Shown here one piece after another: positions 1-54,030 of a stretch of 64,000 nt of DNA. Position 1 is the first letter of the stretch; each line of letters begins with the position of its first letter. The DNA is from Chara braunii (Eukaryota > Plantae > Charophyceae). The position numbers were made by a program, and so were the translations under genes. Below the pieces are notes generated by a model. It was not told where the DNA came from and ran no database searches. It saw only the letters and a program-made list of their open reading frames with translations. Location: positions 2,024,015 to 2,088,014 of the forward strand of contig BFEA01000027.1 in assembly GCA_003427395.1 (NCBI GenBank). The letters are read 5' to 3'.

Positions 1-351
1 CCCGGGTAATCAATGCTGGTGGAATCGAGTCTCCCAGAAGGTTTGTTTTATTTTCTTTCTATAACCTTACCCAAAGGCTGAGGGAGGTACTAGTTGTTAG
101 AAGTGGATATCTGGCGCCTGGTATTAGGGCGAAGAGGTCTCCTCCCCTCCCCTCCTGTAATTACTTGCACAGTCAATCCTCTGGATGCCAGAGTAATCAA
201 TGCTGGCAGGTTTTACACAACTTTCGCCTATTCACTCTGAACCCACTCTGTATTCATTCTGTAAAGGGACGCTGGACCCGTTTTCCAGCAGGTGATGCTC
301 CCCACCAATAGATGGAGTCTCTCCCCGGGTGCTAGTGGTGTCTGATCTTGT
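1..351 (+). mobile_element. L1-like LINE 3' UTR/tail, left part (continues at 20733-20809)
   Basis: Has the shared tail motif GGGACGCTGGACCCGTTTTCCAGC...GATGGAG (266-319) and the CAGTCAAT..hairpin..AATCAATGCTGG motif (170-210), as in the L1 tail at 41480-41727. Its remainder (TCAGCACCACTAGCAC + polyA) resumes after 20732. Confidence 0.85.
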
Positions 352-1409
352 TGTGACGAACCACTTTCTGTAACGCGCGATTTTCTGCGCGGTTGCAATG
401 AGGGGTCCTAAGCTGGGAAGATTGGGCCAATTACGGGGGATTGGGATCGGTGGAGAATTGCATCAGTGTCCTCGCTTTTTCGTCCTTTTTCGTCGTTTCT
501 TTTTCGAATGGCCGGGCATGGGGTCAGGTGTGTCTTGGGACGGCCGGTTGATTGATTGGTCGGATGGTTGTCTGGCGTGACGCCATGCGCGCGCGCGATT
601 GATAAATGTTGTCGTCGTTTCTTTTGGTTCGGTTTTCGATCTTTTGGGCGCGGACATCGCGCGGAAAATTGCTTCGTTCTTTTTTTGAAATTCCTCTTGA
701 ATCTTTTTCGAATTTTGTCGAGCCCCCAATGGCTTTCGAAATTTCGGACTTTCCTTCTGGAATTCGAGCTTTTTGCTTTTTCGCATTAGATAGGAATTTA
801 GGAATTCAGTAATTAGGATTTTTTCTGCCGCGCGGCGCCTTTTGCTTACGCGCTTCTTCATGCGGCTGCAACGGTACTCTGATTAGTGGGCGCCCTTAAT
901 CGTATGTGTAACTGTAATTTTCGGCGGGCGCCATTGTAACTGTATCTCTCTTCTTGCACTTCGTCTCTCCCGCCCTCACTCTCTTTCTTTTGCTGAAATT
1001 TTGTAAGTCGCGGCTTGCATGCTCGGATCGATGCGTGGAGAAGGGTTACGTCCCCCACGCCGCGGTCGATCATGCAGAGCGCAGACGTTCCCTCTCTAAA
1101 TCTCACTCTAAGTCCTGGTAATTCCGTGTTCTTCGCGCATGCATGCACGCTATAAATTCCGGCTGCGCGATAAGTCAGCTCTCTTAACCCATCGTTGGAA
1201 GCTCGGGGTTGTGCGATCAAGAAGGGTCGGCACACGAGCGAAGTAAGAGGTGAGTAGAGTAGGAGTTGGGCGACCCGACGGGCTGGTGCCGAACGCACGG
1301 GATTGACGTGGGCCACGACTAACTGTGGGCACGGGCGAATACAACTGGTGCGGGAGGACTAAGCAGGGTGACAACTTCGTGGGTTGGTGCGTGACGACGG
1401 ACTGTCCGC

Positions 1410-1449
<40 letters not shown>

Positions 1450-2472
1450 TTAAGGTTGATAGACGCGAATTTGCTGTTTTCTTGTCTCTTCCCCCTCTTC
1501 ACCTGTGTACATACATTTTGATTGCGGCTCCGGGCGGTTTGCCCATTCTTATTTCCGTTTCGACTTTCTGAAATCTGGGCTTGGGTTTTTGCTCACACTT
1601 GTCTTTGCTATGTCCGTCCCGATTGCATTATGTGTATGATTATCGAATGAATGGATGTATGAATGTGTGGATGTGTGGACGTTATGCCTGCTTGTATATC
1701 TTTTTGCTAAGAACCTCTGTCCTTGCTTTTTGTTTGTAACAAATTTTTGCCCACACCTGAGGCAGTTGTAGGTGGGACGAGGATCCAGCGCCGATAGCGA
1801 TTTTGTCCTCGTTTTTGCTTATCTCGCGATGGGGGTTGTGATATGGTTGCATCTTGCATAATCCGAAGCAATTACACGATCCGAGGTCTGGCTCCGCGAA
1901 CGCCGCGCGAAAACACGTGTAAACGCGGTCCGAGTCGCGCCCTTACACGCATTCCTGTACGTCGATTCGCCCAACCAAAAAGATTTGCGGCGGAACCGTC
2001 ATCACGTGCGAGCACGCCGAGGCGTCACTGAGTCTGCCTGTCCTGCACCTGCTCATGCGCGGTGACGATATCCCGACCCGAGCTATCCCATCGACGATGA
2101 TACCATGACGCGATCTTGGAGCTCAGACTCGTCCTACGACCCGGACTATTTCACCCCTATGATAAACAAGCTCATAAGGACGTGATACCTCTGTCACACG
2201 GAGAATCGGCTATGTCCGCGGGAATTCCACTGCGCTACCTCTAGCGACCCTCGGTGCTCCGATTTCCCTTCTCCCGACCACACCTACCACTTCACCCACC
2301 CGGGATTTGTTCTCATCACCACCAGTTTCCCTCCTTTCCGCCTTCTTCTCCCGTATCATCAACTCAGTGTTGTTTCGTGGCCGGCCATAGCCCCCTATTG
2401 GCCCAATACATTGTCGACCGGCTGAAGGGGTCTGCCGGCACGCCGTCCGAACCCTATGCCTCGCACCGCATC
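352..2472. mobile_element. Solo LTR of family X, left part (split by the nested Gypsy)
   Basis: Begins TGTGACG; the partner part ends CGTCACA at 20732 (7-bp inverted termini). Flanks TTGT/TTCT are a near-perfect 4-bp TSD. Reverse complement aligns with 61480-63565. Confidence 0.75.
1414..1449. repeat. (GA)n microsatellite in LTR X
   Basis: Direct reading; equivalent to the (CT)n at 62765-62837. Confidence 0.95.
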
Positions 2473-2879
2473 TGTCACCCGTGGGAGGGTTGGTCGGGGC
2501 TCCTGTAACCTGCACAAAACAAGTCAGTCCACATCAACAAATACAAGTATCGTAGCCGACCGTGACCAATGCAAGAAGAAACTCACGAAACATTGTCTGG
2601 CAGAAATAACAGAAGTAGTTTCATTCAATCCAAAACAATAGGATGGGAAACACTCGTCCCGGCCTCAGCCGTACACCTCGCTCCTGTGTCTGGAAAGTCT
2701 GTCTGAGTCCCTACAGACCTAGTCAACAAACGTCGTCTAATCCTCCTCCCAATTAGGTGACGGCTGTAACGCGCTCGTCGATCCCAAGGAGTAGTGCTCG
2801 AACTCTCAGTGTCGGAAGTAGCCTCCCTCGCCCATCGGGGCCAAAGCTCCAGATCCACCGTGACCATAGTTCGGGTGGT

Positions 2880-3600
2880 GCCCCCTCCGAAGGCCTGCTT
2901 CACGAAAGTACCCGCTCGAGAAGCCCCCTTCGGACGTACCCCTTCGGAAAGCCCTCTTCACGAAAGTACCCCCTCGAGAAGCCCCCTTCGGACGTACCCA
3001 TTCGGAAAGCCCGCTTCACGAAAGTACCTCTTCGGGATATTATCCCCCCCTCGGTAAGATGCGGTGAAAGTGTCCGTCTGGTAAAGTACCCGTCCGGTAA
3101 GTGTGTCCGCCCGGTAAAGTATCTGCCCAGTAAGTGTATCCGCCCGGTAAAGTACCCGTCAGGTAAATGTGTCTGCCCAGTAAAGTACCCGTCCGGTAAG
3201 TATGTTCACCCGGTAAAGTACTCGTCAGGTAAAGGTGTCTGACCGGTAAAGTACGTCCAATCGTTAAAAATGGCCGCTCAGTAAAAAGTCTGTTCGGTAA
3301 AACACCCTCTTCGGTAAATGTGTCCCTTCACTAAAATACCCTTCCGCCGAGTGTCCCTCCGGTAGCGTACCCGTTCGGGAAGACAGCCCCCTCCATCGAG
3401 TGTCCCCGTCGAGTGTCCCCGTCGAGTGTCCCTCAGGTAGCGTACCCGTTCGGGAAGAAAGCCCCCTCCGTCGAGTGTCTCCGTCGAGTGTCCCTCAGGT
3501 AGCGTACCCGTTCGGGTAAAAGCCCCCTCCGTCGAGTGCTCTCGTCGAATGTCCCTCCGGTAGCGTACCCGCTCGGGTAAAAAAAAAAACCTCCGTCGAG
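2880..3600. repeat. Tandem minisatellites in LTR (~59-bp, ~30-bp and ~50-60-bp units)
   Basis: Repeated CCCTTCGGAAAGCCC...CACGAAAGTACCC, GGTAAAGTACCCGTC and GAGTGTCCCTCAGGTAGCGTACCCGTTCGGG units. Confidence 0.9.
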
Positions 3601-4039
3601 CCTGGTTCAGATAGCGTCCCTTCACGGGGCCAGACTAGTCTGGTTCCAGTTTTGTCCCAAAAGCCCTGTCTCGTCCCATGTCCCGATCCGCGCCCGATGG
3701 CCCCGGTCCGGTCCGATCTGGTGATCTGCTCCCCGTAACCTGGTTCGGCGAGATGGCCGATCTGTGCCCCGCAGCCCGGTTCTATTCAGAGACCCAAAGC
3801 CGCGTCCAAAGATGCCACCTTGCGTGCTGCCCACACGTTCCAGCTGCTTCCCTGTTCGTATGCCCACAGGCAAGGGGTGGTCGTGCTCAGTCGCGCGTTC
3901 GTGGGCGCGTGAGTGCGCGGTTGGCGCTCGTAGACGAAGGTAGCACCTCTGGGCCACTCTCCTCCTCCATACACTGATGCGCGCCGATGCGCGTAGAATC
4001 CCCTCCCCCGTGGCTCTCTCTCTCTTTCTCCAGCACGCT

Positions 4040-4910
4040 GATGTGCGAGGATGCGTGCTGGGTCCCCGTTGCTCTCTCTCTCCAATGAAGTGATGTGCGC
4101 GGACGCACGCTCGCTCCCCGCGCTCTCTCTCTCGAGTGAACTGATGCGAGCGGATGCACGCAGGATTCCCCTCCCCGAATCCGCTAGTGCGCGGGTGGCC
4201 ATGTTGCCTGTCCGCTGGTGCGCGAGTGCTCCCGCCCTCAGTCCGTTAGTGCGCGTGTCGGCACGCTGCCTGTCCGCATGTGCGCGGGTGCGCCCTCCCC
4301 TAATCCGCTAGTGCGCGGATGGCCGCGCTGCCAATCTCCAAGTGCGCGGGTGCTCCCGCCCTCGGTCCGTGAGTGCGCGGGTGATCGTGCAGCGTGTCCA
4401 CAGGTGCGCAAGTGCCCCCACCCCGAGTTCGCTAGAGCGCGGGTGACCGCGTTGCGTGTCCGCACGTGCGCGGTCGCTCCAGCCCCGGGTCCGCTAGTGC
4501 GAGGGTGACCGCGCTGCGTGTCCACAGGTGGGCGGGTGCTCCCGCCCCGAGTCCGCTAGTGTGCGGGTGACCGCGCTGCGTTTCCACAGGTGCGCGGGTG
4601 CACGTGCGCAGGTGCGTGAGCTGCGTGCCCAATCCGATGGTGCGCGCGTGCCCGCGCACAGGTGCATGAGCTGCGCGCCCGATCCGATAGTGCCCGAGTG
4701 CGCGGGCGGGGTTGCGCGCGGCTGCGCGCACGTGCGCCCGATCCCGACTGTGTGCGGCGAGGTTGCGCGCGGTTGCGCGCGGTTGCGCGCGGTTGCGCGC
4801 GGTTGCGCGCACGTGCGCCCGATCCCGGTTGTGCGCAGCTGCGCGCACGTGCGCCCGATCTCGACTGTGTGCGGACGGGGCTGCGCGCGGCTGCGCACAC
4901 GTGCGCCCGT
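4040..4910. repeat. CpG-rich degenerate tandem repeats in LTR, including a (GGTTGCGCGC)5 run
   Basis: Repeated CCGCTAGTGCGCGGGTGACCGCG units; 10-mer run at ~4761-4810. Confidence 0.9.
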
Positions 4911-5684
4911 GTGTGACTATCCACCTGTGTTACCTGGCTCTCCCCGTTCTTCGTGCGTGGTGCTCCCTCTCTCCTCCGTGCGCCTCCAACTCGTGCATGC
5001 GAGAAGTGTCCCGTGCCTAGGCCCAGTTCGGCTTATATGCTCTGCCGGGCCCTTCTCGGAGTGCAAGCCTTGGTCCTCGTGTGCTCTGTGGCAGCCGACA
5101 ACTTGCAGCGCCCCGGTACCGGGCCTGTGCCCGAGCCTGATTGGGCCTTCGAAAAGTTTCTGGCGAAAAGGGCTTCCCATCGGGAACTGAGCCCTTTGCA
5201 GCGCCCTGGTACCGCAACTGTTCCCGAGCCTGTCCCAGGCCTGCCCGGGCCTATGTGGTTCCCACACAGCTGCGGTGCCTCTCTTAGGGAAAATCCAGGC
5301 TGGGCCCCGTAAGTAAAAAAAAAAAAAACGGTCTCAAATCAATTGGGCCTAGGCGGACCCCTCGCCCTAGCGGAACCGCCCCTTCATAGGAAAATCCAAC
5401 CAGCCGAGTGGCCCCCTTGCCTGTGGCGCCCGCCTGCGTCATGGTCGGTGAGCCCCGGCTAGGTAAAGTAGCCCCCTTGATTGTACCATCGGTCTGCCCC
5501 GGTGTCGGCGAGTGTCGTCTCGTCGCACGATTGGTAAACAGTGGTGACCTCGATGGTCATGGTGTTGGTCTGCCTCATGGTCGGTGAACCCCGACCAGAT
5601 AGAATACTGTCGAGTGGAGTTGTTGTCGCGTGCCCTCTGAAAGGAAGTAAAGGGCGGCGTAGTATTGTAGCCGCCTGACAGCAG

Positions 5685-5703
5685 CCCCCCCCCCCCCATT
5701 CTC
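5685..5703 (-). promoter_or_regulatory. Polypurine tract (PPT)
   Basis: Minus strand reads GAGAAT-G13-CTGC immediately before the LTR start TGTCA. Confidence 0.85.
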
Positions 5704-11916: not shown

Positions 11917-11925
11917 ATTTTTTTC

Positions 11926-22407: not shown

Positions 22408-22560
22408 GAGGGACGCTGAGCCCGGTTCTCAGCATGTCCGGTTCGGTCACTCCGGGTAGACTGTGAGGACCCCGGCTTCAATCTTCTCATTGGTAATATC
22501 AGCCTTGGGCACTGGGCCCGTTTAAAAATAAAATTAAAAAAAAAAAAAAAAAAAAAAAAA
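22408..22560 (+). mobile_element. LINE 3' tail, type 2, with polyA
   Basis: GGGAC-GCTGAG-CCCGGTT-CTCAGC hairpin; downstream sequence matches the reverse complement of 49941-50010. Confidence 0.75.
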
Positions 22561-25413: not shown

Positions 25414-27280
25414 CTTTTTTTTTTCTTCTTTTTTTTCTTTTTTTTTTTCTTTTTTTTTTTCTTTTTTTTTTTCTCAAACAGCCCCAGAGTCAGCCTGAGA
25501 TGCTGGTACGAGTTGTCACTTCAAGCTGGTCCGAGGGAGGCTCCATCTATTGGTGGGGAGCAGCGCCTGATGGGAACCGGGCCCAGCGTGCCATCCATCA
25601 AATGTCACAGGAAACACAGTAATTGTGCATATGTGCTGCCTGTTACAGGCGTACATTCTCCATTGTGTAGTGTATATAGTTTGTATGTGTCAATCTATAT
25701 GATTAAGCAGATTAGTGGTGACGATGGTTGCATTAAGCAGCATTAGATATACTGTACTAGTTCCTAAGTCCAAGTGTTTGTGGTACTGTATTTCTGTATT
25801 TCTGCTGTATTTCTGTCTTACCTCCCACCATTTGAGTGCTGGCTTATGACCTGTTTATGTTTCTAAAAGAGGATGCGATGCATCATCTGTCAGTACTTAT
25901 TTCTGAGGACTAGCGTTAAGCAGCGGTTGTCTATGCTATATTAAGTCCCAACTACTGATGCAGCTTCTGGGGGGAGGGGGGAGGGTGGGGAAGAGCGAGG
26001 AGCGAAAGGACAGATGAGGGGGAATGAAGGGGAGGAGGGGAGGGGGGTGGTTGGTGGGAAGGTGCAGGGTGTAGGGGGGAGGGGGGTTACATTACTTAAG
26101 ACAACAGAAGACAGTTAGTCATAAACGAGGACAAAGTTTGTCGGTTGATGGACAACTTGAAAGTGATGTGTTGGCAATCTTTTCCAGAGCCTCTCAGAGA
26201 GAAGCCAGGGATGCCATGTAAGGGTGTTTTCGTCGTTGAGACTACAAAGTCTCTGTTTTGGGTCAGTCCATGTCTCCGTGAAACTATTTCATAGTTTTTG
26301 ACATTTCTCACTGTCTGACTCGGTACGCATTTTGTCGTGCAGCTTTTTCCATACTGCCTGCGTAAGCTGAGATCGTGTCAATTATCGTTGAACGGGCTTG
26401 CATGAAACCGAAATTATGCTGTTTTCTTTCATAGGAGCAGCGCATCCTCCAGGCTGCCATGAGCACGGTTAGCCTGGAGTAAGTGAAGAGATTGGTCATG
26501 AATGGTGACCAATCTCCAACCTCCATCGGAGGGGCTCCTAGAAGGAGGGTGGACAATTCCCAGGGGAGGTGGTGATCTGTAAGATAGTGCCACTCTGCGT
26601 CCCACCACCTCCACAGTTGGAGCACCATGGGGCAATCCAACAAACAATGCTCCAGAGTAGCTCTCCTGTTGGGATATGAGTTGGAGCAATACGAACACAG
26701 TGGGGAGAGCAACCCTTTTTCCTCCAGGTCAGTCCGTGATGTGATCCAATCCGGGGTAGGCAGGAATCTATGTATGATTTGCCATTGCAGGGCTCTATGG
26801 CTAGTCGGTCGAATGTGTGAGACTGCAGACCACCAAAACTGCCTGAATTCCTGTGGCTCCAATGGGGAATCCCTCTCCCAACGCTTGGTCATTTGGTCAG
26901 AGATCCCGAGTGGCTTTCGTGCTGCCCTATATCCCTTCTTCACCGTGTATTGCCACAAGGACGTTGTTTGAGATCCCCCCCATGTCCGCTCCCATTCTGC
27001 TGGGTTGAATGGGAGGTGGTGCAGCGGGGTGGAGGGTTCGTATTGAAAAAAAACGTTGTTTTGGTTCCCCACCACTCTAATTCTGGTGAGGGAGGACTTT
27101 GGTAGCTGTGTGTCAAACTCTTCCTGACGATGTACAGCTGACCATCTAGCCCCTGGCAAAGTACTCAGTCCTACTCAACATTTATTGCCCATTACGAGGC
27201 ATAACCCTGACTACCTGCAGTCTCTATTCCCTTCCCACTCCAACCTCTTCAACCCGCTAAATCCTAATAGAAAACAGAAT
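25414..27280 (-). mobile_element. 5'-truncated L1-like LINE (ORF2 C-terminus 26308-27159, 3' UTR, polyA)
   Basis: Zinc finger CSYC...TLEHCLLDC and WRWW motif; tail motif at 25535-25592; T-run at 25414-25472. Confidence 0.88.
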
Positions 27281-27775: not shown

Positions 27776-27914
27776 TTTTTTTTTTTTTTTTTTAATTAGG
27801 ACTTCCCCGGCTAGTGCTAAGGATGTTGATAAGAGCAAGCACCCCTAGCACCCCCGAGGAGGCTCCATCTATTGGTGGGGAGCAGCACCTGCTGGAAAAC
27901 GGGTCCAGCGTCCC
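27776..27914 (-). mobile_element. Short L1 3' tail with polyA
   Basis: T-run 27776-27793 plus the shared tail motif. Confidence 0.85.
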
Positions 27915-30834: not shown

Positions 30835-31740
30835 TGTGGAGATGGTGGGATAGGATATGGGGTCAATTAGGTACATCCCACAATTGGCCATGTGACTGGA
30901 AGGAATTGTTATGTGAATCCTGAAACCCAGACCAATTAGACGATTTTACTCAAAACTTGTTTATTGTCGTACGTAGAGCACTTATGTGGGTCATTTGGCG
31001 TCAGAGATGCACCTATAAAATGGAGGGGCAAAACTGGATGGTCAGGAATTCATGGAATCTATCAAACAACAAATACACACAGAAATCACAGCGCAATGGG
31101 AAAAAGTAAAGGAGAGAGTCAAAATTTTATCATCCAGGACGGAAATTCTTCAGCATTTTCAAAACTTCAGTGGTGCTTGGCTAGGGGGTCTTCAAGGGGG
31201 GAAAATGGGAAGGATCATATGGAAGGGGGGCAAGGTTGATCAACAGGGAGAACGACAATAAATTAGAAGGGATCATTATCTCTGCTTCCATGATTGGACA
31301 AACGTTGACCCCTCTCTACCTCTGCGTCCTATGTCTGAATTCCCTGATCCTTTCCCACCTTCGTCAGTGTGTCTGGTCCCTCGAAGTTGGTATGGGTTGG
31401 ATTAAAAGGCCTTTTGTCCTAGTAGCAGGTTTTCCAAACTTCTTTTGTTGAAGACTAGTTGCTAGAATGTTATTGCTAGATCTGACGCTCGTCCAAATGG
31501 GTGAAGAGGCAGCTGCTCCAACACTAGATCAGGGAGGACATGAGGAATTCCCGACAAATGTTTTTCTGATAAGCTTCATATTCAAATTGTACATGGGACA
31601 CTGGACCCGTTTTCCAGCAGGTGATGGTCCCCACCAATAGATGGAGCCTCCCTCCAGGTGCTAGTGGTGTCTTCTCTCATCAGCACCTCTAACACTGGCG
31701 CAGGCGTTTTCTTAAAAAAAAAAAAAAAAAAAAAAAAAGA
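30835..31740 (+). mobile_element. L1 3' end (WRWWDRIW region to tail and polyA)
   Basis: Homologous to 40570-41130; tail motif at 31595-31650; polyA at 31714-31740. Confidence 0.85.
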
Positions 31741-32230: not shown

Positions 32231-33171
32231 ACCTTATGCTCCAACTCTGTTGTGAAAGCATATGCTCCAACTCTGTTGCAGCGGAGCTTGGCCCTCTCTT
32301 ATCATCGAGACGCCTATTATTAGTTGGGCGTGACCTCCTCCCAGCCCTATGGCTATGTATGTGTGTGTATTCAGTATTGTAGGTGCCCGTAGGCTATATG
32401 TATGTTTGTAATGTGCGTGGACCCGTAGCAGACGCTGCTCCCCACAATGGAGCATCTGCGAAGTGAATACCAGTGAGAGGTGATCTTNNNNNNNNNNNNN
32501 NNNNNNNNNNNNNNNNNNNNNNNNNNNNNNNNNNNNNNNNNNNNNNNNNNNNNNNNNNNNNNNNNNNNNNNNNNNNNNNNNNNNNNNNNNNNNNNNNNNN
32601 NNNNNNNNNNNNNNNNNNNNNNNNNNNNNNNNNNNNNNNNNNNNNNNNNNNNNNNNNNNNNNNNNNNNNNNNNNNNNNNNNNNNNNNNNNNNNNNNNNNN
32701 NNAGTGAGAGGTGATCTTACCACCTCTACCAGTGCCTGTGTGAGCCATGTGTAGGTAGTATATATAGGCCCCTAGAAGCACCTTGCCTCGACGCAGCAGA
32801 GGGGCGACCCTATGCCAACGAATAGACATCCGTCCTCCAGACTCCAAGACATCAGCTGGGGCTCCTCCCCCCCCAAGGACCCATACCTCCTTGATCTATC
32901 CTCAGTAGAGCTGTCTCCCACCAGCAGATTCCGGTATTCGGCTAGGTACTTCCTATAGGGATCGGAAGGGACAGACTGCAGACTCAGTAGGTGGTGGGCC
33001 ATCATCCGTCGTTCCACTAGCCCCCAGCCTTGTCCCTCTGATGTGCCTTAATCTATGTGTGTATGGTATGTGATAGACTGAGTGTCATGGTTATGCCTGT
33101 AGTCAGTATCTGGGGTAGTGTCTTATGTGTGTGTATGTAATATGTGGTAGACACCGGCCTATCTGGAAAGG

Positions 33172-33557: not shown

Positions 33558-35002
33558 CTTGAAACTATTCCTAATGCGAGACACTGGCAAGGAGATGCCA
33601 TTGAACCTTCGGTCCCTTCTGGCCAGCCAAAGAGTCCAAAAGCCAATACCTCTGAATTTGTTCACGATCTTGCTTCTTAGTGTGTTGCCTTGATCTCCGA
33701 AGGGAAAAAAAGTGCCTATTTCAATCAGGCCTGATGTCTGAAACGCCACCCAATGTTACTTTTGCCTTTTTGGACTGCGGTGGGGGTAGACCTGCCCACA
33801 AGTGTTTCTTTTGCCTATTGGAAACGTGGGTTGTGACCCACGAGCCGTTGCCCCATTTATTTATTTTTTTTCCCTTTCAAGAAACAGCAGGGGCTGATGC
33901 TAGGGGTGTGGACCTTTCTATAATGCATCTGACTGCACTTACGTCTAGAGCTCAGTCCAAATTGCCCTAGTGTGAGTATGCCCTGAGTAGACTGTGGCCA
34001 GTCTTGACAGCAACCCTGCATGGCTTCAGTGCCTATTCGCAAGCTGGCAGATTTTGGGACCCCAATCTTCAAACTTCAGGAGAGAGATGCTATGCACAGG
34101 GTTCTTCGCCAGCCACATCTTCTTCTTCTTCTTCTTCTTGTTCTTCTTCTTTTTTTTTTTTTTTTTTTTTGGGTGAACATCATGCGGGCGGGTTGCCGCC
34201 AACGTGCATGCTTGGAGCATCTTAGGGCACCCTCACACTAGGACTTGACACACATCCAGGTCCGCTCAATAGTTAAGCCGGGTGAGATACTCTTAAGGTA
34301 GTGCTGGTGTGAGTACCCGCTTGGATGGAAGATATGAAATGGATATCTTAGCCGAGTAAGGAAATTGCCTTTCACGGACACAATTTGGCTGGCCGGCAAT
34401 CCAAATTTCAGTAGTTCTCAGCCGAAGCCAGGTGATGGCCCTCGTATCTCAATCGAGCTGTAAATTTTTCAAAGGGACAATGGGCCCACTTCCTAGTACA
34501 TGTTGCTCCCCACAAACAGCTTGGAGCAAGTTTCAAGAAAAAAAAAGTCAAAAAAACATGACAGATCCAAGGTAGATGGAGCTGAGGAGGAACTGTGCAC
34601 TCAGGGTAAACATCGACGACAGCAACCGTGGCTGCCTCTGAGCTGACCTGATGCCAACTGGTGGTTATGGGATCACAATCTTTGGAGTCACGCCACGTGC
34701 AGGATTTTCTTCAGTGAAATTCTGCCTTCAGAATTTGCCACCGCGATGAAATGATGGCGAGGAAATGATGACACCTCCAGAGTGGATTTGATTAGCTGGG
34801 GCTCCCGCTCTTGGTGAATGCTCCTATCACCATGAAAGGGGGAGCCGACAGTGGGCTGTCAAGGAAAAGACACAAGGCCAAATTTGAACAATGACAAAAT
34901 TTGGTGAAAAACATGGTTTCCGCTGCTGCTCCACAGAATGGCAGAGCCATCACCATATAAAGGTCATCATTTGGGGACAAACAAGAGAAGTCTTTTCTCT
35001 GA

Positions 35003-35437: not shown

Positions 35438-35800
35438 ATTTTTTTTTATTTTTTATTTTTTTATGCAACGCCGGAGGTAGCTTGAGGCGCTGGTAGGAGC
35501 AGACGCCGCTAGCTATTCCTGGGGAGGCTCCATCTATTGGTGGGGAGCTGCACCTGCTGGGAAACGGGCCCAGCATCCCTTTCACATGTTGCAGAATTCA
35601 TATTCAGGGTTTCACTGGAGCATGCCGGGGGGCCACCTCTTCAGCCTGAAGATAGGCCGCCTAACTATTCATGAATTAACCAGCTGCTCCCCCTTGTGTC
35701 CACCCATGTGTTTGGGTGGTGCTGAGGTTGGCTGCATCCATCCTTCCTTCTCTTTTTGACACGTTTGACCTCTAAGAGTCTAAACCCTTAAAACACCAGT
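35438..35800 (-). mobile_element. LINE 3' UTR fragment with polyA
   Basis: T-rich run 35438-35462; tail motif at 35525-35580. Confidence 0.75.
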
Positions 35801-39000: not shown

Positions 39001-41727
39001 TGGAAACCACTAGAGGCCCCAATAAGAATTATGGGGGTATCCATGACCACTGAGGGACGACCGCCAATCAACGATGAATGGATTAGCACCCCGACCCAAC
39101 AAAAAGTAAATAACTGGAGGAACAAACACACATCCCTTTTCAGTCGAGCGCTGGTTATTAATAACGTGATTTTTGCATCCTTATGGTACAAATCCTTGTT
39201 GTGGTCACTGAGCAACGCAGCCGTGAGAAGCCTGAGGACAAAAGCAACAACGTTCATGTGGAGAGGGGATGGAGAGCAGACCAACGTAATAAGTCGTGTA
39301 GCTTGGGACTCAATTATCCAACCTAACGCAGGAGGAGGATTGAGAATAATTGACCCAGCCATACAGGTCCAAGCCCTTCGTATAAAATGGATTAAGAAGC
39401 TTATCTTCGCCCCCCATAACCCGTGGTCTATTTTAGCTTTGGAACATTTGGCTCGAATGACCCCGGAGGCCTCCCACAAGATTCACCCACTGACATGGTT
39501 GGAGGATCGCTTCTGGACAGTCCCACACAAATTCTCACAAGTTAGGAACAGGCCGGAAAGAGGGACTCAATCGATGGACACATTATGATCATCCTTGCTG
39601 CAGACCTGGCATCATCTCCCGCTCCCAGACAAGAACCACCCCAACCGTTGGGAGGAGGTCCACCGACAACCTCTCTTTGGGAACAGATGGATAACGGATA
39701 CAAGGGGCTGCGTCATGAAGAGCTCAGCCCTGCCCTGGAAAAGTTGGGTTAGACATGGCATCCTTAGGGTAGGGGATCTCTGGGACCGTGACAGACACGA
39801 TTGGAAAACAAAGGAACAGATGCGAACATTCTTAAAGTACTGCCACCGTGTGGAAGAACTCTTTGAGAATCTAATTGAAGCCATCCCACTGGAATGGTAC
39901 CGAATTCTCAAACATGGCCCTACCTTGAGAATAAGGGATTGGGTGGCATGCACAGGGCCCCCGTTAAGGATCGGCCAGATTCACATGGTCTCACCTCAAC
40001 TAGTCCTGGTTGAACATCACACCATCACCAAAAAGGGCACCCTCCAAGGGAGTAGGACAAAGGGTGGCGTACCAGCCCGAAAAAGGGTGAGGGTCTTAGA
40101 AGAGAAAGGACAAAGGATGGCGTACCAGCCCAAAAAAAAAATCCAGGACCTGGTCTTTGATCCGGTGGAATGGACTTGGCTGCCTCCCCAAAAGAGGGGA
40201 ACCCCCAAGGTAAGTCATATTAGCCTACATCAATTAACGGTCAAATCGCCTATAAAATGCTCAAACCTAAGCGGTATCTAAATGATTTGATCAACGATAG
40301 ATGGGCCACGCAGCTGAATGTGGACCGATCTCTCTTATCGCCAATCCAATGGTTCAGGGAACAAAAATCCAGGCCCATGAAAATCACCTCCCTTCAGTGG
40401 CAAATAGCACACCGATGTCAGCCAACAAATGATTGGTTGGCTCACTGCACAACCCTCGAACAGAGAGGAATGTTGCTCCTTTGGTGTCAACGGTGCCAAA
40501 GTCTCTTCCCCCCCCACAAAATGGCGGAGACCATTGAGCACATCTTTATGCAATGTCCAATTGCTCAATTCATATGGAGATGGTGGGACCGTATATGACG
40601 GAAGATGAAACCAGACATTCCCTGGCCCTGGTCATGGCAGGCCATATTAGCTGGGCATTGGCCGCGGGTAGAAACAACCTTGACTTTCGTACGGAATATG
40701 TACAGACTGGGAAGGAGAGTAGTGATTTGGGCTCTTTGGTGGCAGAGGTGCACCTTGGCCATGGAAAGGGTGCGGGTGGAAGGGGCGGAAGTTCTAGAAC
40801 AGATTCAGCAACAGATTCATCTTGAGCTTACTTAGAGATGGTTAGACACAATATCCCAATTAAACGTTTTCAAACAAATTGGAGACGTCAGGAGACAAAT
40901 TACGACTTTTGCACAGACTGGGTGGGGGGAGAAAGAAAAGGGTGGATTGCAAAAATTGAATGGAGTGGGGACAGGGGAGTAGGGTCGTATGATTTGGAGC
41001 AAATAAGAAACTATCGTCTAATTTTTAAGGACTGGACTAACATAGAGCCCTCCTCCCCTTTACGCCCTCCCTCGGATTTTCCGGACCCCTTTCCTCCTCA
41101 TGCCCTGTCTCTAACAGAGATTCTGTCTTGAGCATAATACTTTCCTTTGCAAACCTCGCACACTTTCACAAAGTGGAACACCTCCCTAGAGCCCCCTGGG
41201 GAGGACCCCGCCAATGCTTTTTTCTATTCTACTTTCTGTTGAGGTAGTCAATGTAGTCAATGCTGACCTTTTGAGTATTCTAGAAACAACTGAGCATGAG
41301 GGTTCTGTATGCAACTGAGCATGGTTTTGGAGTGTGACTCCCCTGATTAGTATCATTCCCTAGTATCAATCATAAGCGGTCTATCTGACGCCCTTTTATG
41401 AGGATGAAGAGCTACAAAAAGGGATTGGCTGCCCTACATGCTCACACAAGGCTACTTTACGGGATATTACACAGGATCTGCTCAGTCAATCCCCTGGGTT
41501 TCAGGGCAATCAATGCTGGCAGACTCCATAGCCACTATTCTCGTAGGGTCTGCTCAGTCAATCCCCTGTTGTGCAGGGTAATCAATGCTGGCAAGCCTCA
41601 CACTGTTTTCACCTTCTCAAGATGTTTTTCTTTCAAGGGACGCTGGACCCGTTTTCCAGCAGGTGACGCTCCCCACTAATAGATGGAGCCTCTCCCCAGG
41701 TGTTAGTGGTGTCTGCTCTTACCAGCA
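36010..41727 (+). mobile_element. Near-complete decayed L1-like LINE (ORF1 3' part, ORF2 EN-RT-Zn finger, 3' UTR)
   Basis: EN motifs TINVNGL/CLHETHL/WDFN; RT motifs NYRPITLL, DFEKAYD, RQGDP (the FADD segment appears deleted near 38840); CQRC...ETIEHIFMQC; tail motifs at 41482-41727. Confidence 0.92.
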
Positions 41728-43489
41728 NNNNNNNNNNNNNNNNNNNNNNNNNNNNNNNNNNNNNNNNNNNNNNNNNNNNNNNNNNNNNNNNNNNNNNNNN
41801 NNNNNNNNNNNNNNNNNNNNNNNNNNNNNNNNNNNNNNNNNNNNNNNNNNNNNNNNNNNNNNNNNNNNNNNNNNNNNNNNNNNNNNNNNNNNNNNNNNNN
41901 NNNNNNNNNNNNNNNNNNNNNNNNNNNNNNNNNNNNNNNNNNNNNNNNNNNNNNNNNNNNNNNNNNNNNNNNNNNNNNNNNNNNNNNNNNNNNNNNNNNN
42001 NNNNNNNNNNNNNNNNNNNNNNNNNNNNNNNNNNNNNNNNNNNNNNNNNNNNNNNNNNNNNNNNNNNNNNNNNNNNNNNNNNNNNNNNNNNNNNNNNNNN
42101 NNNNNNNNNNNNNNNNNNNNNNNNNNNNNNNNNNNNNNNNNNNNNNNNNNNNNNNNNNNNNNNNNNNNNNNNNNNNNNNNNNNNNNNNNNNNNNNNNNNN
42201 NNNNNNNNNNNNNNNNNNNNNNNNNNNNNNNNNNNNNNNNNNNNNNNNNNNNNNNNNNNNNNNNNNNNNNNNNNNNNNNNNNNNNNNNNNNNNNNNNNNN
42301 NNNNNNNNNNNNNNNNNNNNNNNNNNNNNNNNNNNNNNNNNNNNNNNNNNNNNNNNNTTTTTAAAGCCCTTGTGCAAGGCCTCTATCCCGGTGGTGGTAA
42401 GAGAACCTCCGGAATTGAGGCTTTGCCTAACAGGCTGCTCCATCTATTGGTGGGGAGCATCACCTGCTGGAAACCGGGCCCAACGTCCCTTTCATACATC
42501 TTCTCTTTTCTGTGAAGGAAGAATCAGTACCAAACTTCGCCAATGTAGAGAATATATTCCTGCCAGCATTGATTACCCTGGATTCCAGGGGATTGACTGA
42601 GCAGTACAGGAGGCATCTAGGAGGAAAAACAGGGGAAGGGAAGCCTCTTTAGTCCATGAGGACCGCGATAGATCCTTTCAACAAAGCTATCCTGTCCCTG
42701 CGTGTTAGCCTTGATTAACCTTTCTCAAAGGCTCCCCATACCTTACCATTGCATTTCTACCATAGCAAGCTCAGACGGAGGGAAAGGGTCTGAAAAACAA
42801 ATCGGAGATCTGAGAAAGGCTCCTGGATGAAGTTAGGACCAATCTCGAAAGATGAGATGGAAGTCTTTTTTTAGTGACACTCCTATCTCTTCTTCCCCTG
42901 GCCATTTCACCTCACCCAAGCCCCTCCCTGCAGCACCCCCCAGCCAGTCCAGGTTAAATTTTTGAATAATTTGTTGAAGGTTTTGCAGCTTAGCTTTAAT
43001 TGTCGTCCACTTTGCTCCGATTTGCGTTTGTATCATACTTGCAAGCGCACATCGTGCGCAAGTTTCCCGACGTTCCGCGCACGCGCCTAACCATTCCCGC
43101 GAGGAGCACGAGGTGTGCGGGGAACGGCCCGAACACACCCCCCTCCCCCCCGAAAAAAGAAGGCAGGGGTCGAAACGGCACATTGGAGCCCCCCCGCCAA
43201 AATTGATGCCAAGGCCAAAAAAAAAATTTTTAGGCCCGCGCTCAAGGCCGGACCTCGAGGTTTCAAATTTTCAAAACTTGTTTGTACTGTGTGGGTGGGC
43301 TTGGTTGGGCCTCTTGCGTTGGTTTCTGGTCGGCCACGACCATCCCTGCTAGGAGTGTCGTTGCCATTTCAAGGAGGAGCTACCGCCGTTCTCAAGTGTC
43401 GCCCCGTGCTGAAGTGCAGCCATGCTGCCGTGCTGCCTTATGAGGGAGGAGCTGCCACCATTGCCCGGTGAGAATCACCAGCCTCGACC

Positions 43490-47673: not shown

Positions 47674-48950
47674 CATGTATTAGTAACCCTAGAACAATGC
47701 CTGCTGGTATGTCCAATGGTTGCACAGATCTGGAGATGCTGGGATGCAGCTCGGTCACACCTCACAGGCAGCCAATACCCCTGGGTGATCAAGCTACTAC
47801 TTTTGGGAGTCCAAACTGACATACCGCCTGGGTGGAATGCTTATGACAGAAACCTCTTCCAAACCACAAGATTGGAACTGTTAATGGTGGTCGAGCGAGC
47901 ATGCTGCACCTTTGAGCGGAAACAGCACACCTTTGGTTATCTCCAAGCCAAGGACCACATGGCGGACTACCTGAAGGTCAGGACCAAAGAGGCGTGGGAT
48001 CACCTGAAGGCCAAAAGAAAAATTATTGAAGGTGACCCTATCCTCACCGATCAGGTGAAACAGCAAAAGATCAAAGAGATACGGGACCAATTTCAAGATG
48101 AATGGCTGGGGCGGAGAAAGATGACTGCAGAACTCTTGGGCCAACACCTCCGATGGAAGGACTGGAGACGCCGAGAGAGCGAATGGCCTCTTAAGCCAAG
48201 CGCTCATTTCACAGTCCCACACTCAGCGACCCCCGCCCCCGTCATCCTTTGCCCATGATCCTATGCCTCTAGACTTCCAGACTTCCCCTCCCCCTGCGCG
48301 CCTGCCCCCCCCCCCTCTTCCCTCCGGACACCCAACTGTTGGTATGCAGGATCGAAGACACTCAAAGCGGTCGGACAAACCTGTGGCTTCAAGAACTGGA
48401 GGGACACACACAGACGGACATGGAGAGACCGGAAAGAAGGGGTGAGGGTGCAGAATCTTGGGGGGGGATGGAAGGACGGCAGGATGGGGCCCGAAGGGCA
48501 CACGGAGTCTCCTGAAGGGAAACGAAGCAGGGTGGGCAGGTACACTCAAAAGGGGGATGGACTGCAAACCATGGACGGGGTGGGGACAGGTAGGAAGGGT
48601 TTAAGTTTTAGGGTTTAAGGCTCAGGGTTTCAAAATGTACAGAAGGGAGATCGAAATTAGATAGAAGCAGTACAGGGCATGTAACGCTGTGACAAATGGG
48701 GGCTGCGGATTGGGGCAGAGCCACTTGACAGAGAGAGCTCCATGACGGGATGGGTGTTGGTAGCAGCTCCAAAGGGAACAGGGAGCCGCGTGATTGGAAG
48801 TGTTTGGCTCCTGCCCCAACAACATTGTGAAGTATGTGATACCCAAGGGACGCTGGACCCTGTTTCCAGCAGGTGCCGCTACCCACCAATAAATGGAGCA
48901 GTCCGACAGATAAGCCCTCAATCCTGGTGGTTCTCTCGCCAAAATGAACG
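47674..48950 (+). mobile_element. 5'-truncated L1-like LINE 3' end
   Basis: TLEQCLLVCPMVAQIWRCWD...FERKQHTFGYLQA is homologous to ORF 26308..27159; tail motif at 48847-48900. Confidence 0.85.
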
Positions 48951-51221
48951 TCAATTTCGTTTGTGCTGCGAATTGCGAATGTATCTGTGCAAAAATCATC
49001 AGTCCTGATTCATTCATATGTTGCCTACCGTAGAGAGGAACACTTTACCTTCCTTTGGTAGCTCGACCATGAGACTGCGGGCCTCGCGATGCTACTCACA
49101 ACTATTTTTTTGGAAAGGATGCTGGACCTGGTTTCCAGCCAGTTTTCTATCTCTTCTTCTCAGGGCACTGGACCTGCTTTCCAGTCTGATACCCAAGATA
49201 GGATGCTGGACCTGTGTTTCAGCAATCCGGGTTGAATTGTGAGGTCCCAAGCAAAGTTAAAATAAAAAAGAACAAACAAAAAAAAAAAACGTACAAGCGC
49301 ATCGTCCCAAGGAAAGAAGCACAATACATCCGCTGCTATTCAGAGTAACCCGTGTATATGTCCTTTGTCTGTGGCAATATGCAGTCATTGTTTTTGTTTT
49401 CATTTTGGTATTGTGGCATAGCGGTCCGTTATTCACGGCCTCTGACACAGCTGCGGCACTAATGGCAAAGTCTATGGAAGACATCTTGGCTGGATTTGGA
49501 CGGTTTCGTCTTTAGATAGATTCGCAAGAGCTCTTCTGTGTGATATCTGGTCGGTTACCTCACAGCTGTCAGAGGGCTCTGAGAAACGTTTCTCTCCGTC
49601 CCTTACAGCTGTCTTCCCTTCTTTTCTTTTTTTTTTGGATCTTTTCTTTTCTCTTTCACAGCTCCTTCCTTTGCTTCTTGGAAAGGACCCTCCTCCAGAC
49701 CAACTTCCCGGTGGGTTCCAGATAAATGCGGCGTCTAAGCATATAATTGCCTCACAAAAAAAAAAAAAACAGGGTGAAGTATTTTGGCTTAATTTACATG
49801 GAAAAAAAGAGTAACTCATCATGAATGTGGTCCAATGCTTGCCTGGCGATAGGCTGGGCTATTTTGGCAATGTGTCTGTTTGGCCTGTGGGACCAGGCCG
49901 GGCCTTTTTTTTCTTTTTTCTTTTTTTTGTTGTTGTTGATTCGGGCCCAGTGCCCAAGGCTCAACTTACCAAAGAGGGAACTGAGGCCGGGGTCCTCACA
50001 GTCTACCTGGATAGAAACATCTGGGAGCCTTACCCAGTTTCATTTTTTACAGGACCGATCAGGACCCGAAACAACAGAAGTGCCAGAAGCAGAAGACACA
50101 TTCTAACAATCATTACTTCAACAGCTTACAGCAATACGCTAAACTACTGTAGCTACCTACAGTGCCTACACATTACAGGAAGAATCTGGCGCGCCCTAGC
50201 ATCTGTAGAGGAGCAAAGTAGTTCCTACGGGGGTTACCTAACAGTGTTCCAGGCCTATTCTCGGCCCGTCTCTGAATGAACCATGTGAAACCGCCCCTCA
50301 AGACGGGGCTAGCTCAGAACAGAGTCTTTGAGCCATAGGGCCAGCTGTAATCTCAGGTCAGGAGACACTTCAGAGAACATCTTGTCCCTCGCCCATGTAT
50401 TGCGGAACCAGCCTGTACCCTGTCCAAACTGGGAGTGGGATCTTAGCCAGTCTGCCTGTACAGTCCGTCTGATTCGGCTCAGGACCTGGCCTTTTTGTTG
50501 GTTAAAGGAAGTAGCCTCCTTTCTGAAGAATACATTATTTGGAGTTGCCCAAATTACTTCCATAATGATACCCCAGATGGAGAGTGCTACGAGCCACAAC
50601 CTGAGTTCAGGCATAGCCTGTGGTCGCACTGGGAGAATAAGATCCATTCGTCAGTCCAGGGGACTGAGTCTTGTACAAAACGGTCCCATTGGGATCTCGG
50701 ACACCGCCAGATAAGGTCTGAAGAGGGACAGCGTAACCATAGGTGTTCCGCTGTTTCCCAGCCCCATCTGCGTCGGGAGCAGATCTCTGAGACCTTCATT
50801 CTTCGGGAGTTAAGCCAGCAGGCTGATGCTGTTACAATCAATGACTGAAGCCACATGATGCTTGCTTGCTTCTGGGAGGCTGTCGTACAGTCTGAGAGAG
50901 CTTCCCATAGCTTGACAAGGTCCACATTTTGTAGTTGAAGATGGTGCAGGTCTTGGAGGCGCTTGGTTGACAGAGCAATCGGCTGCTTCCGCACTTTACC
51001 ACGCAGTTGACTTCCTCCCACCTTTGGCTTATAATGGATTAATGGGACCATTTCATGACTTCCACCTCTTCAGCCACCACCACCGGTGCCTGTTTGTCTG
51101 ATGCAGAGTTGACCCAGACTCTGATTTCTCTTTGAACTCTCGAGTGGAGGGTAGCACTCTCTCTGCAGTCTTGTGTAGGGAGTGATGCCTTCCTTGTTTC
51201 TCTTTTTCGCCCAGATCTGTA

Positions 51222-51227
51222 TCTTCT

Positions 51228-51272
<45 letters not shown>

Positions 51273-51540
51273 TTCGCATGTGGGAAAACCTACTTAACGA
51301 GGTGATAAGAACAGCCCCGGTAAGTAGGCCCCTGCGGCGAAGGCTCCATCTATTGGTGGGGAGCTGCACCTGCTGGTAATCGGGTCCAGCGTCCCTGTAC
51401 TAGATATGATGTGTATCAGCTGGAAATCGGGTCCAGCGTCCCTAATCAGTGATATGAGGAAATATCATTCTACCGTGATACGAAGCCCTAACACTGATGT
51501 GATGTGTACGAGCTGGAATTCAGGACCAGCCTCCCTATTA
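51222..51540 (-). mobile_element. LINE 3' tail insertion with long polyA and three hairpin copies
   Basis: T-run to 51269; motif at 51341-51395 plus partial copies at 51417-51443 and 51511-51536. Confidence 0.8.
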
Positions 51541-53005
51541 TGTGTTCGCACCTACATCTCAGAACAGAGCCGAGGCATTGATTATCTTCATCTTCACTCC
51601 TTGAGAAAGTTCCGGGCCCAGAACTTGTCAGACTTGTGAGTCTAAGTCCAGTGACTTTAGCCAGGTCCCTCGTGCATGGTCCGCGCCATCCAATAGGATG
51701 GGACAGCCTGTTTGAGTTTTTTGAACTGCTCTTCCACAAGGCGAAGCCTGCCCAACTTATTGTGTAGAACCGGAGCGGGGATCCAATAGCTTTTTCTCAA
51801 TCCCGTATATCCTGTATCTGAGCAACACCTTTCTCCACCCAGGCTTTACGAAAGGAGCTCGGGCTGCTGTTAGCCATAAACTGAGTACCATCCGGCTGTT
51901 TGATGTGTGGGTTCTCAAACATGATCTGTTTGAGGACCTTCTCTCTTGTGTTGGGCTGCAGATACATGTCCGGGAACAGTTTGCCCCAAGCCGACAGCAT
52001 ACTCTTCCAAAATTTGGATTTTGGTCTTCTCTGCACAAAGGACGGGATCAGAAAACAGACAAATACCAGCTTTGGCTTGGAGATGGCCCATTCCTTCGCC
52101 AAGATGTACTGGGCCAGCCGCTTCCACGGCTTGGATTTGGGCCCAAAGATTGCCGCCACTACCCACTTGATAAGCAGGGCCAGGTTCTGATGTGCTGGGT
52201 CGAGGACACCTAGGCCTCCCTCAGACCTTGGGAGGGCTATTGTCTCCCAGGCTACTTTCGTGATGTAGCCTTGATTCTCTGATGCCGACGGTTTCCACAG
52301 GTATCATGCCGCTGCTGACTTTATTTTTGAGTACGCCTTGTCCCCCACTGTATGCACGGACAATGGGAACCAGAGGATTGAGAGGGCAGCTGAGGACAAG
52401 ACCAGAGCTCGGAGAAAGAGGGAGAGTCGGTAGTTTCTCATCCAACGTGCAATCCTCGTCAACACCTGATCCGCCAAAATTGAGTCTTGGACTGCTGAGC
52501 AGTCGCCCAATGAGACTTGTACGCCCAGGAACCTGTCTGATGAGTCAGACGGGCCCCTCTTTAAGCCCCAATCCACGCAGAGTTCATATTGGGGACGAAG
52601 AAAGTAAGCCGACTTGCTCCAATTTATTGATGCCTCAGATAACTCACTGTATTTATCCATAGTAGATCTTAGCTCTTCTGAGTCCTGGGTGGAGTTTGTA
52701 ACTGCTACAGTAAGGTCATCGGCTAAAGCGCCTCCCTTCCACTATAGCGTGGGGGCCAGTGAGAGTCTTTGGATATGGGGATTGCGTGTAATATTTATCT
52801 AAGAGTACTTCTAATCGCAGGACAAATAGTAGAGGGGCTAGCAGACAGCCCTGTCTCAAGGAAGGGGTAAGTAGAAATTCTTCCGATTGTTTACCGTTGA
52901 CAACCACTACTAAGGAGGCCTGGTCATGGCCCGAACACTCCGGCAGAACGTGTCACCATAACCCATTCTTTTGAGGGTATTGAGAACAAAGCCCCATCTT
53001 ACCTT

Positions 53006-54030
53006 TTTTTTTTTTTTTTTTTTTTTTTTGATGGGAACAAGGCTCCAATCTATTCGTGGGGGGCAGCACGTGCTGGGAACCGGGCCTAGCGTCCCATATG
53101 GAATTTTTTACGTAGGAGTTTTGAAAATTTGAGATATTTGAGATACCGGGGCCATTACCCGGCTTTGGCTAGGAAAAATTCAAATTACTTAGCAAATTAC
53201 TACGACGAACTTCAGGAATAAGCAAAGTTCAGAAAACGACTCAGAAACCCTCCATCAATCCTCTTTACCTCACTCCGGCAAGACTTACTGCAGCAGAGCC
53301 ACCATCTCCACTGCTGCTGTACCCTATTTCCGTCCTACAGGCTAGCCCCCTCACTAGTAGGACGCTTGATATCCAACCATCTACTTCTCCATGCAGAGGG
53401 CCCTTTCGTTTTTAGAAGAGCATTCAGATCGAGAAATACCTGGCTTAGAGCCTTTCAGCAGCCCACCCCTACCTGCCTCATCCTATATCCCGATACTTAG
53501 CTTCTACTAGGCCTCACGCCCCCAGCTGGTAGGTTACAGAGTGACACAGCCCACCCCAGAAAACTCCCCCCTACTAGGCTACAGGGCAAAACGACCCGCC
53601 CCGGCTCCGACCAGCATCGTCTGAGTACCAGCTTACCAAAGGACACTAGAGTGTCTTTCGCCCTCGACAACTCCCCAGATCTCTCTATCAGGTCTCTTGC
53701 CCTCGTATAGCTCGAGTTACAGGGCAGAGCGACCAAGCCCCAGCATCGACCAGCGTCGTTCTGGCCTCGTCCATTCGCAAGCACACGGGCCACGGCGACC
53801 CAAGACTACAGCAAATACCAGACAAGCCACCAATCAACAACATAACTGTAGATCCGATCACTCAGCTCCTTCGGGCGCTGGTTGCAGATATCCCACATAA
53901 AATCCCTCACAACCCTACTCCGGCAAGTCATACTGCGATGAAGTCACCATCTTCACCGCAGTTGTACCCTATTTCCACCCTGTATGTTAGCCCCATGGCC
54001 GCAAAGCGCATTATCCCCCACCATCGCAAC
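53006..54030 (-). mobile_element. Nested LINE 3' fragment with TSD-like flanks
   Basis: T-run plus tail motif (53040-53095); flanked by CCCATC(T/C)TACCTT near-duplicates (~52993 and ~54031); internal duplication 53270-53350 / 53914-53995. Confidence 0.7.

Follow-up and report, generated by a model that had tools for sequence, protein, structure and literature searches.

Why should one short, structured sequence recur at the 3' end of long interspersed elements (LINEs) whose untranslated regions (UTRs) otherwise differ, and what would read it? The question is raised by a stretch of 64,000 nt from the charophyte Chara braunii (contig BFEA01000027.1, positions 2,024,015 to 2,088,014 of the forward strand; hereafter the window, whose own coordinates are used throughout), in which a first-pass annotation made from the letters alone had described a recurring double hairpin. 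The recurring unit, a core of 53-54 nt, is real, is under selection, and is the mark of one algal L1 lineage rather than of many. It is predicted to fold into two pseudoknots in series (PK1 and PK2), to which a third stem-loop of variable sequence (SL3) may be added. The central proposal of the annotation is supported: L1-type families that have diverged, with pieces of the second open reading frame (ORF2) 26-61% identical depending on the domain, carry in their 3' tails a structured RNA on which selection acts.

Recurrence of the core in the window

A motif scan together with inspection of the flanking sequence found the motif, or part of it, at all 13 positions named earlier: 11 are full cores, the copy at 22410 has the first hairpin only, and the copy at 32415 is decayed. 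Of these positions, 7 are minus-strand, a detail absent from the annotation. A structural scan and a covariance model, the latter trained on 14 full copies, added copies that had been overlooked, namely a decayed full core at 34474 (+) and five first-half-only units at 49116 (+), 49162 (+), 49200 (+), 51442 (-), and 51535 (-), for a window total of 11 full, 2 decayed, and 6 first-half-only copies. The copy at 34474, which was outside the training set, scored 39 bits and the five first-half-only units 12-29 bits, compared with 8 bits for the best unrelated match in the window. Additionally, a 20-mer from the core gave 10 window matches at up to two mismatches, where 0.0002 were expected. The recurrence of the core is beyond chance.

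Identity among the 11 full cores is 75-96%, with a mean of 86, while the 200 nt upstream of them are 52% alike as against 51 +/- 2% for shuffled sequences. At this level the UTRs are indeed unrelated, as had been stated; the statement fails for the elements ending at 266, 41637, and 42489, which share a 45-nt module, and for 53095, which shares about 120 nt with 22410. The copies and their carriers are as follows, each core being named by its first base on its own strand.

27862..27914, minus: type copy of the 53-nt core; predicted PK1 at core positions 1-24, linker A25, predicted PK2 at 26-53
27794..27861, minus: SL3 of the type copy, a long terminal stem-loop with a conserved pyrimidine-rich loop (z -5.4); poly(A) next at 27776-27793
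266..318, plus: full core; SL3 interrupted within its loop, element cut by the window edge
25540..25592, minus: full core lying in the 3' UTR of an L1 copy with its 5' end truncated; ORF2 stop 716 nt before
25415..27171, minus: this 5'-truncated L1 copy, with ORF2 zinc-binding end, 3' UTR, core, SL3, poly(A), and a 15-nt target-site duplication (1 mismatch)
31595..31647, plus: full core ending a rearranged L1 (about 27996-31738) with an ORF1-like frame, endonuclease, inverted reverse transcriptase (RT) piece, and zinc-binding end
31648..31738, plus: SL3 and poly(A) of this rearranged L1
31908..31960, minus: full core, more diverged than any other full core (75-86% alike); SL3 and poly(A) reach 31804
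35527..35579, minus: full core; SL3 and poly(A) reach 35439
41637..41689, plus: full core ending a long decayed L1 (about 36047-41727) with an ORF1-like frame, endonuclease, RT, and zinc-binding end
42437..42489, minus: full core with a second type of SL3
48847..48899, plus: full core, ORF2 end 589 nt before; SL3 shortened
51343..51395, minus: full core of a short insertion within another L1's ORF2; two PK1-only units stand before it
53042..53095, minus: full core with an in-phase G26C/C41G swap, without SL3, poly(A) 12 nt on; forms the 3' end of a roughly 1-kb ORF-less element (53004-54040)
34474..34527, plus: decayed full core, overlooked earlier, 39 bits; A-run 10 nt after
32415..32454, plus: strongly decayed core, 11.9 bits, E 0.03
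22410..22433, plus: PK1-only unit at the head of a "type B" tail; the 108 nt downstream are 81% like 49905-50011 (-)
49116..49223, plus: three PK1-only units (49116, 49162, 49200), the first pair of PK1 stem 1 being A-U instead of G-C in all
51419..51535, minus: two PK1-only units (51442, 51535), upstream of the core at 51395

Two predicted pseudoknots in series

The loop of hairpin 1 begins with CCC, complementary to a GGG five bases upstream of the stem, and the loop of hairpin 2 contains CACC, complementary to a GGUG just upstream of the hairpin 2 stem. Because the loop can pair with upstream sequence in both hairpins, the core is predicted to form two H-type pseudoknots in series, separated by a linker of one A (A25). 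PK1 would occupy core positions 1-24, with stem 1 (S1, 1-3/12-14) of 3 pairs, stem 2 (S2, 6-11/19-24) of 6 pairs, and loops of 2, 0, and 4 nt. PK2 would occupy positions 26-53, with S1 (26-29/38-41) of 4 pairs, S2 (32-36/49-53) of 5 pairs, and loops of 2, 1, and 7 nt, the last of which (42-48) is A-rich. Two serial pseudoknots with an optional third stem-loop thus describe the structure better than the earlier double hairpin. Over 14 full copies, 91.7% of the cells in predicted pairs are paired, compared with 27-54% when the partners are slid.

The covariation that had been claimed for hairpin 1 is borne out by double changes in three of its six pairs among 19 distinct first halves. Furthermore, pair 1-14 of PK1 is G-C in 14 of 19 rows, A-U in 3, G-U in 1, and broken in 1. 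The same claim for hairpin 2 did not hold: its lone double change (1 of 14 rows) lies in a copy with an insertion that shifts the alignment, and no compensatory pair for it appears in the population table. The two strands of this stem, 32-36 and 49-53, are perfectly complementary and conserved.

The population table was drawn from sequences at least 80% like the core, found in 12,905 and 16,631 contigs of two DNA runs; the read tables are depth-weighted, and unphased save through copy 53095. Nearly all variation falls on positions 16, 30, and 31, all in predicted loops, where run X2 shows 59%, 47%, and 35% variation; no listed stem position exceeds 3.2%, and both the A-rich loop 42-47 and U17-U18 are invariant. 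A11G and U19C, the two sides of one PK1 S2 pair, occur at matched frequencies in DNA (1.36/1.20% and 1.29/1.33%) and in sense RNA (15.7/15.7% and 11.1/11.4%). In PK2 S1, G26C and C41G are likewise matched in the two DNA runs (1.20/1.17% and 2.02/2.20%), at about ten times the level of the other listed stem transversions (median 0.12-0.14%, maximum 0.28%), and they occur together in phase in copy 53095. Since both are transversions, CpG decay does not account for them; the pair tolerates G-U as well (C41U 1.1-1.2%).

A nested minimum-energy fold, pairing 1-13 with 26-37, was rejected because the hypervariable positions 30-31 would be paired in it; G26C would also break it. A simpler alternative holds that only hairpins form, hairpin 1 plus one of two alternatives in the second half, the conserved loops being read as sequence and the extra pairings being incidental. 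Nested folding does yield both hairpins for the type copy, PK1 S1 has just 3 pairs, PK2 S2 lacks covariation, and the energies calculated for the pseudoknots, which place each of them 2-5 kcal/mol below its best single hairpin, are crude. However, if there are only simple hairpins, three things become separate accidents: the G26C/C41G match, the change between G-C and A-U at pair 1-14, and the perfect fit of 32-36 to 49-53. The variable positions, moreover, coincide with the predicted pseudoknot loops. We therefore regard them as quite unlikely. We judge it likely that PK2 forms and fairly likely that PK1 does. Simultaneous formation of both stems is predicted for each pseudoknot, in the case of PK2 from the crude energies.

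The carriers form one L1-type lineage

The window is eukaryotic DNA rich in repeats. Judged by their coding pieces, the carriers are decayed elements of the L1 clade, taken here to span L1 proper and Tx1, with an endonuclease of the apurinic/apyrimidinic (APE) type. Pfam matches were Exo_endo_phos at 29236 and 36578 and zf-RVT at 26308, and RT pieces were located through tblastn. Ten HMMER matches were looked up; the eight with names all belong to Chara braunii, with 75% over 121 residues for the closest. A relative from another Chara lineage, P0016, matches the human L1 ORF2 protein (ORF2p) with an E value of 1.6e-63 and R2 with 2e-15.

The C-terminus of ORF2 lies on the sense strand 558-877 nt before the core in 4 of the 11 full copies (25592, 31595, 41637, and 48847). 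Among the other seven, 51395 and 53095 are insertions within another L1's ORF2, the window edge truncates 266, and the remainder are short or unassigned. Between carrier proteins the endonuclease is 61% identical, the RT-thumb region 44-53%, and the C-terminus 26-43%. A tree was built from 83 rows, made up of 4 window pieces and 79 of 153 proteins (kept for coverage or for having a name). In it, the three carriers with an RT-thumb piece and two Chara proteins form one group with support 100/99, and six other named Chara proteins as well as the type B element of the window fall outside this group. The carriers are therefore diverged families of a single lineage. The annotation had thus gone too far in counting more than 12 LINE tails from different families, as an ORF2 end stands behind only 4 of the 11 full cores, and in assigning them to divergent L1 lineages, as the three carriers that could be placed fall into one.

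The RT-thumb coding pieces of two carriers are internally inverted (30382-30831 and 45951-47109), and such inversions are an expected outcome of twin priming. Core-bearing elements stand tail to tail in three pairs, 31595-31960 and 41637-42489 in the window and 272-545 in the metagenome locus L003, and the minus-strand tails at 27914 and 35579 sit just upstream of plus-strand ORF1-like frames. These arrangements may reflect a preference for insertion in or near other copies.

An origin in one lineage would also suit an element spread by recent recombination or a single burst, with no selection at all, and tail swapping may have occurred; 53095 shares UTR sequence with the type B element at 22410. 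Three variable positions in predicted loops nevertheless stand beside invariant ones, the flanks are at background, and compensatory pairs are present, so that neutrality is largely refuted. Nothing in the evidence points to self-cleavage either. The ribozyme of hepatitis delta virus folds as a nested double pseudoknot, whereas the Chara pseudoknots are predicted to be serial; no ribozyme family matched at E values up to 5 over the whole window or up to 10 for two copies, and reads run through both ends of the core. Absence of selection and a ribozyme are together extremely improbable.

The 3' end of the tails

The core is followed by SL3, a long stem-loop of variable sequence, and then by poly(A), which begins 64-81 nt from the core in 7 of 14 copies and 12 nt past it in 53095, and is obscured by an N gap or a cut SL3 in the remaining 6. 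Poly(A) stands directly behind the tail in 8 of the 14. The folding of SL3 is strong (z -2.3 to -5.4) in 7 of 13 tails and weak (-0.9 to -1.5) in 3, and SL3 is cut short in 3; its type varies by family. The consensus of nine aligned tails has a 5-pair stem, with double changes in three pairs, around a 12-column loop that contains a conserved pyrimidine-rich run. SL3 is optional, as 53095, 34474, and one transcribed family have an A-run 10-12 nt past the core. The transcribed family was seen in RNA loose ends, with its A-run at 12 nt, in 222 and 532 reads for a 153-nt stretch and in 1201 and 1057 reads for the 60-nt core. PK1 also occurs alone and repeated, and heads a different tail at 22410. 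The 15-nt target-site duplication of the 25592 element is the sole clear one among 17 tails searched; by eye, duplications of 13 nt and 10 nt were recognised for 53095 and 51395, respectively.

The short spacing between core and A-run in 53095, 34474, and the transcribed family could also be read as a sign of 3'-end formation, the A-rich loop acting as the near-upstream element that belongs to the layout of plant polyadenylation signals, and SL3 drawing the cleavage site near. The A-rich loop is one letter off the canonical hexamer, but G46A, the change that would create this hexamer, occurs in only 1 of 14 aligned copies and is below listing at 1% in all four runs, and the explanation is weakened by this rarity. 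No pile-up of molecule starts or ends over the core is listed in RNA, which is a weak test in fragmented libraries, and two conserved pseudoknots would be superfluous for such a signal. We consider a role in polyadenylation improbable.

Abundance, expression, and occurrence elsewhere

At 80% likeness the 153-nt stretch matched 8,077 and 9,263 contigs of the two DNA runs; these numbers and the larger ones given above for the 60-nt core show many contexts, not copy number. Depth is limited to the core, and loose ends start at its first base with mixed flanks. Reads bearing the core make up 0.05-0.06% of two poly(A) RNA runs, and 75-84% of the reads in three such runs are sense, provided that the libraries follow the usual stranded layout with antisense first mates. 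A few flanks dominate the RNA reads, so some of these reads may stem from copies inside host transcripts.

A strict full-length core pattern gave no matches in metagenomes. The core 20-mer matched seven metagenome loci, of which L003 and L007 hold three true copies. The other five (L001, L002, L004, L005, and L006) match 20 bases of the second half exactly without the first half, and were treated as chance matches to unrelated shared sequence. No core match was found in viral and prokaryotic collections, and no carrier from a clearly different species emerged from these searches and those of the metagenomes. When the window and three small stretches were compared with Rfam, nothing came near the gathering score over the core, the upstream UTR module described below, or the ORF-less element, and no family was significant over the core. 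Literature searches, with partial coverage that left out most subscription papers and Repbase, found no published account of the Chara core.

What may read the core

The tail is kept across families while the rest of the UTR turns over, and it stands just before the poly(A) from which priming would occur, which matches the pattern of stringent LINEs. By analogy we lean, with some reserve, towards the core as a 3'-tail template signal, bound by the ORF2p of the lineage to select and position its own RNA. ORF2p, the presumed reader, would bind the tandem pseudoknots, pick out its own RNA, and position this template so that target-primed reverse transcription can start at the poly(A) tail. Contacts with protein, or tertiary ones, would fall to the invariant A-rich loop 42-47 and to U17-U18, and the variable SL3 could be an optional second contact or a spacer. 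A bolder version, which we offer tentatively and hold to be possible rather than probable, takes the serial double pseudoknot as the template-recognition signal of the whole charophyte APE-type L1 lineage, common to its families and enabling their mutual mobilisation, with PK1 being portable, repeatable, and able to have crossed into the tail of another lineage.

The core might instead be a stability or translation element like the upstream pseudoknot domain that tobacco mosaic virus (TMV) has. In a plant virus, consecutive pseudoknots of the 3' UTR bind eEF1A and can replace poly(A) (PMC4683447). The repetition of PK1 as a unit at 49116-49223 and 51419-51535, a single sequence across diverged families, as a host reader would favour, and the share of core-bearing reads in the two poly(A) runs all fit such a role. 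The Chara RNAs carry their own poly(A), however; the core lies 12-81 nt from it, at the site of template signals in other LINEs and R2, and no tRNA gene was found in the window. The TMV domain resembles the core as a row of small pseudoknots in a 3' UTR and differs in being viral, with three pseudoknots and a tRNA-like end (PMC4683447), where the Chara core is followed by a simple stem-loop or nothing and then by poly(A); likeness in sequence was judged by the blank Rfam scans. On balance a stability or translation element is unlikely, if less so than the hairpin and polyadenylation explanations.

Several observations weigh against the pseudoknot fold or against its reading by ORF2p. The A-U form of pair 1-14 is restricted to three neighbouring units, and C14 lies within a CpG (C14U 3.0%, G15A 6.0%). 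PK2 S2 has no convincing compensatory double change in the 14 copies or the population table, the G26C/C41G swap may have arisen just once, within a single subfamily, and an apparent G29C/C38G swap was discounted, being at background level in DNA (0.05-0.08%). The table is probably dominated by a few large subfamilies, with A11G present in 5 of 14 aligned copies yet at 1.3% of DNA depth, and the read tables suffer from clipping at the edges of the core (positions 1-4 and 49-53). For the 7 of 11 full copies that lack an upstream ORF2 end, a LINE origin is presumed. The core is common to families whose RT and endonuclease pieces are 44-61% identical, whereas recognition in stringent L2 elements is family-specific (PMC4176376). 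Finally, A-tailed U6 fragments in the window hint at machinery that copies foreign RNA in this genome.

Comparison with known structured tails

The A-clade R2 proteins of vertebrates bind a pseudoknot-hinge-stem that is needed for insertion, and compensatory mutants restore insertion (PMC12180492); the module is also mentioned in PMC12503042. Like the Chara core, it belongs to a non-LTR element and is common to diverged elements, and its order of a pseudoknot and then a stem at the 3' end of the UTR resembles the topology predicted for Chara, where the pseudoknot would be doubled. R2 differs in having a single pseudoknot and a purine hinge of 6 nt, as well as a restriction-like endonuclease, zinc fingers at the N-terminus, and rDNA as its fixed target, in contrast to the two predicted serial pseudoknots, APE-type L1 protein, poly(A), and scattered insertions in Chara. 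There is no purine hinge between core and SL3, and Rfam gave no rRNA family match in the window. With an APE endonuclease and no rRNA match, the Chara core is not the R2 module.

The monocot L1 lineage 1a (LINE1-1_ZM, ZmSINE2/3) has a conserved covarying hairpin in its last 45-50 nt with UCU kept in the loop (PMC3472496). The same paper describes a common tail of Chlamydomonas L1-1_CR and SINEX-3_CR, and proposes a stringent ancestral plant L1 that later relaxed to poly(A). The monocot and Chara tails share the L1 clade, the green lineage, a poly(A) end, and a lineage-wide tail with compensatory changes, and the SL3 loop in Chara usually holds UCU or a near form, which is a lead and not proof of homology. 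They differ in that the monocot tail is a single hairpin, while in Chara it is the pseudoknot core that stays invariant, a hairpin at the end being optional; the word pseudoknot is absent from seven searched supplementary files of PMC3472496.

In zebrafish, ORF2p of L2 binds the tail stem-loop (PMC4176376). The tails of eel UnaL2 and zebrafish ZfL2-1 and ZfL2-2 are, like the Chara tails, structured and under selection, with sequence-tolerant stems and sequence-specific loops (PMC4176376), but they belong to the L2 clade and have one stem-loop that is specific to the family, unlike a core common to several diverged families of an L1 lineage. The Chara tails do show the conserved, structured 3' RNA with compensatory changes by which stringent tails are recognised. 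A partner short interspersed element with a tRNA head was not found in the window; the ORF-less element of about 1 kb does carry the core. Taken together, these comparisons suggest as the best reading that the core works like a stringent LINE tail or an R2 3' module, while being neither the R2 module itself, nor a known ribozyme, nor a viral pseudoknot domain.

Other modules and repeats in the window

The upstream UTR module recurs 80-110 nt before the core in three elements. It consists of an outer stem, an internal loop that is asymmetric and has the same CAAU run on each of its strands, and an inner stem whose pairing is kept although its sequence changes.

164-210, plus; 41477-41523, plus; 41549-41595, plus; 42559-42605, minus: second conserved UTR module, with a half copy at 7 (plus)

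The ORF-less element at 53004-54040 (-) lies in an L1 ORF2, and its target-site duplication of 13 nt is probable. Within it, a hairpin module with conserved flanks occurs twice (53265-53355 and 53910-54000), and about 120 nt are in common with 21979-22090; the element may represent either a non-autonomous partner or a UTR that is long and truncated. The type B tail family behind the PK1 unit is represented at 22434-22535 (+), 49905-50011 (-), and 49224-49260 (+). In the tree, the tail at 49905 belongs to an L1 of another lineage; that at 22410, with few copies, can be drawn as a PK2-like pseudoknot of different sequence, and a pseudoknot there allows two drawings.

Four decayed fragments of U6 small nuclear RNA lie within 44090-44464 (30-38 bits, gathering score 44), three on the minus strand with A-runs following and the fourth inverted. 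In appearance they are retrocopies or a repeat derived from U6. A decayed retrotransposon of the Gypsy type with long terminal repeats occupies about 2500-20400, with coding pieces for protease, RT, RNase H, and an integrase zinc-binding domain on the minus strand, and is flanked by long GC-rich repeats that contain tandem arrays.

Significance

How L1-clade elements pick their own RNA is an open question, as is whether the plant L1 ancestor read a structured tail, as proposed in PMC3472496. The Chara core is only 53 nt long, has defined stems and compensatory variants of natural origin, and exists in a very large pool of copies in an alga closely related to land plants, so that the question can be tested with small RNAs and one protein. 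Even if the core were a stability or translation element instead, it would still be a structured RNA without an Rfam match. As a compact and portable 3' module for an APE-type enzyme, it would be a counterpart of the R2 3' modules used in RNA-templated gene insertion. Should the signal prove to be lineage-wide, the charophyte elements would provide a living example of the proposed stringent ancestral plant L1, and a parallel to the R2 pseudoknot module.

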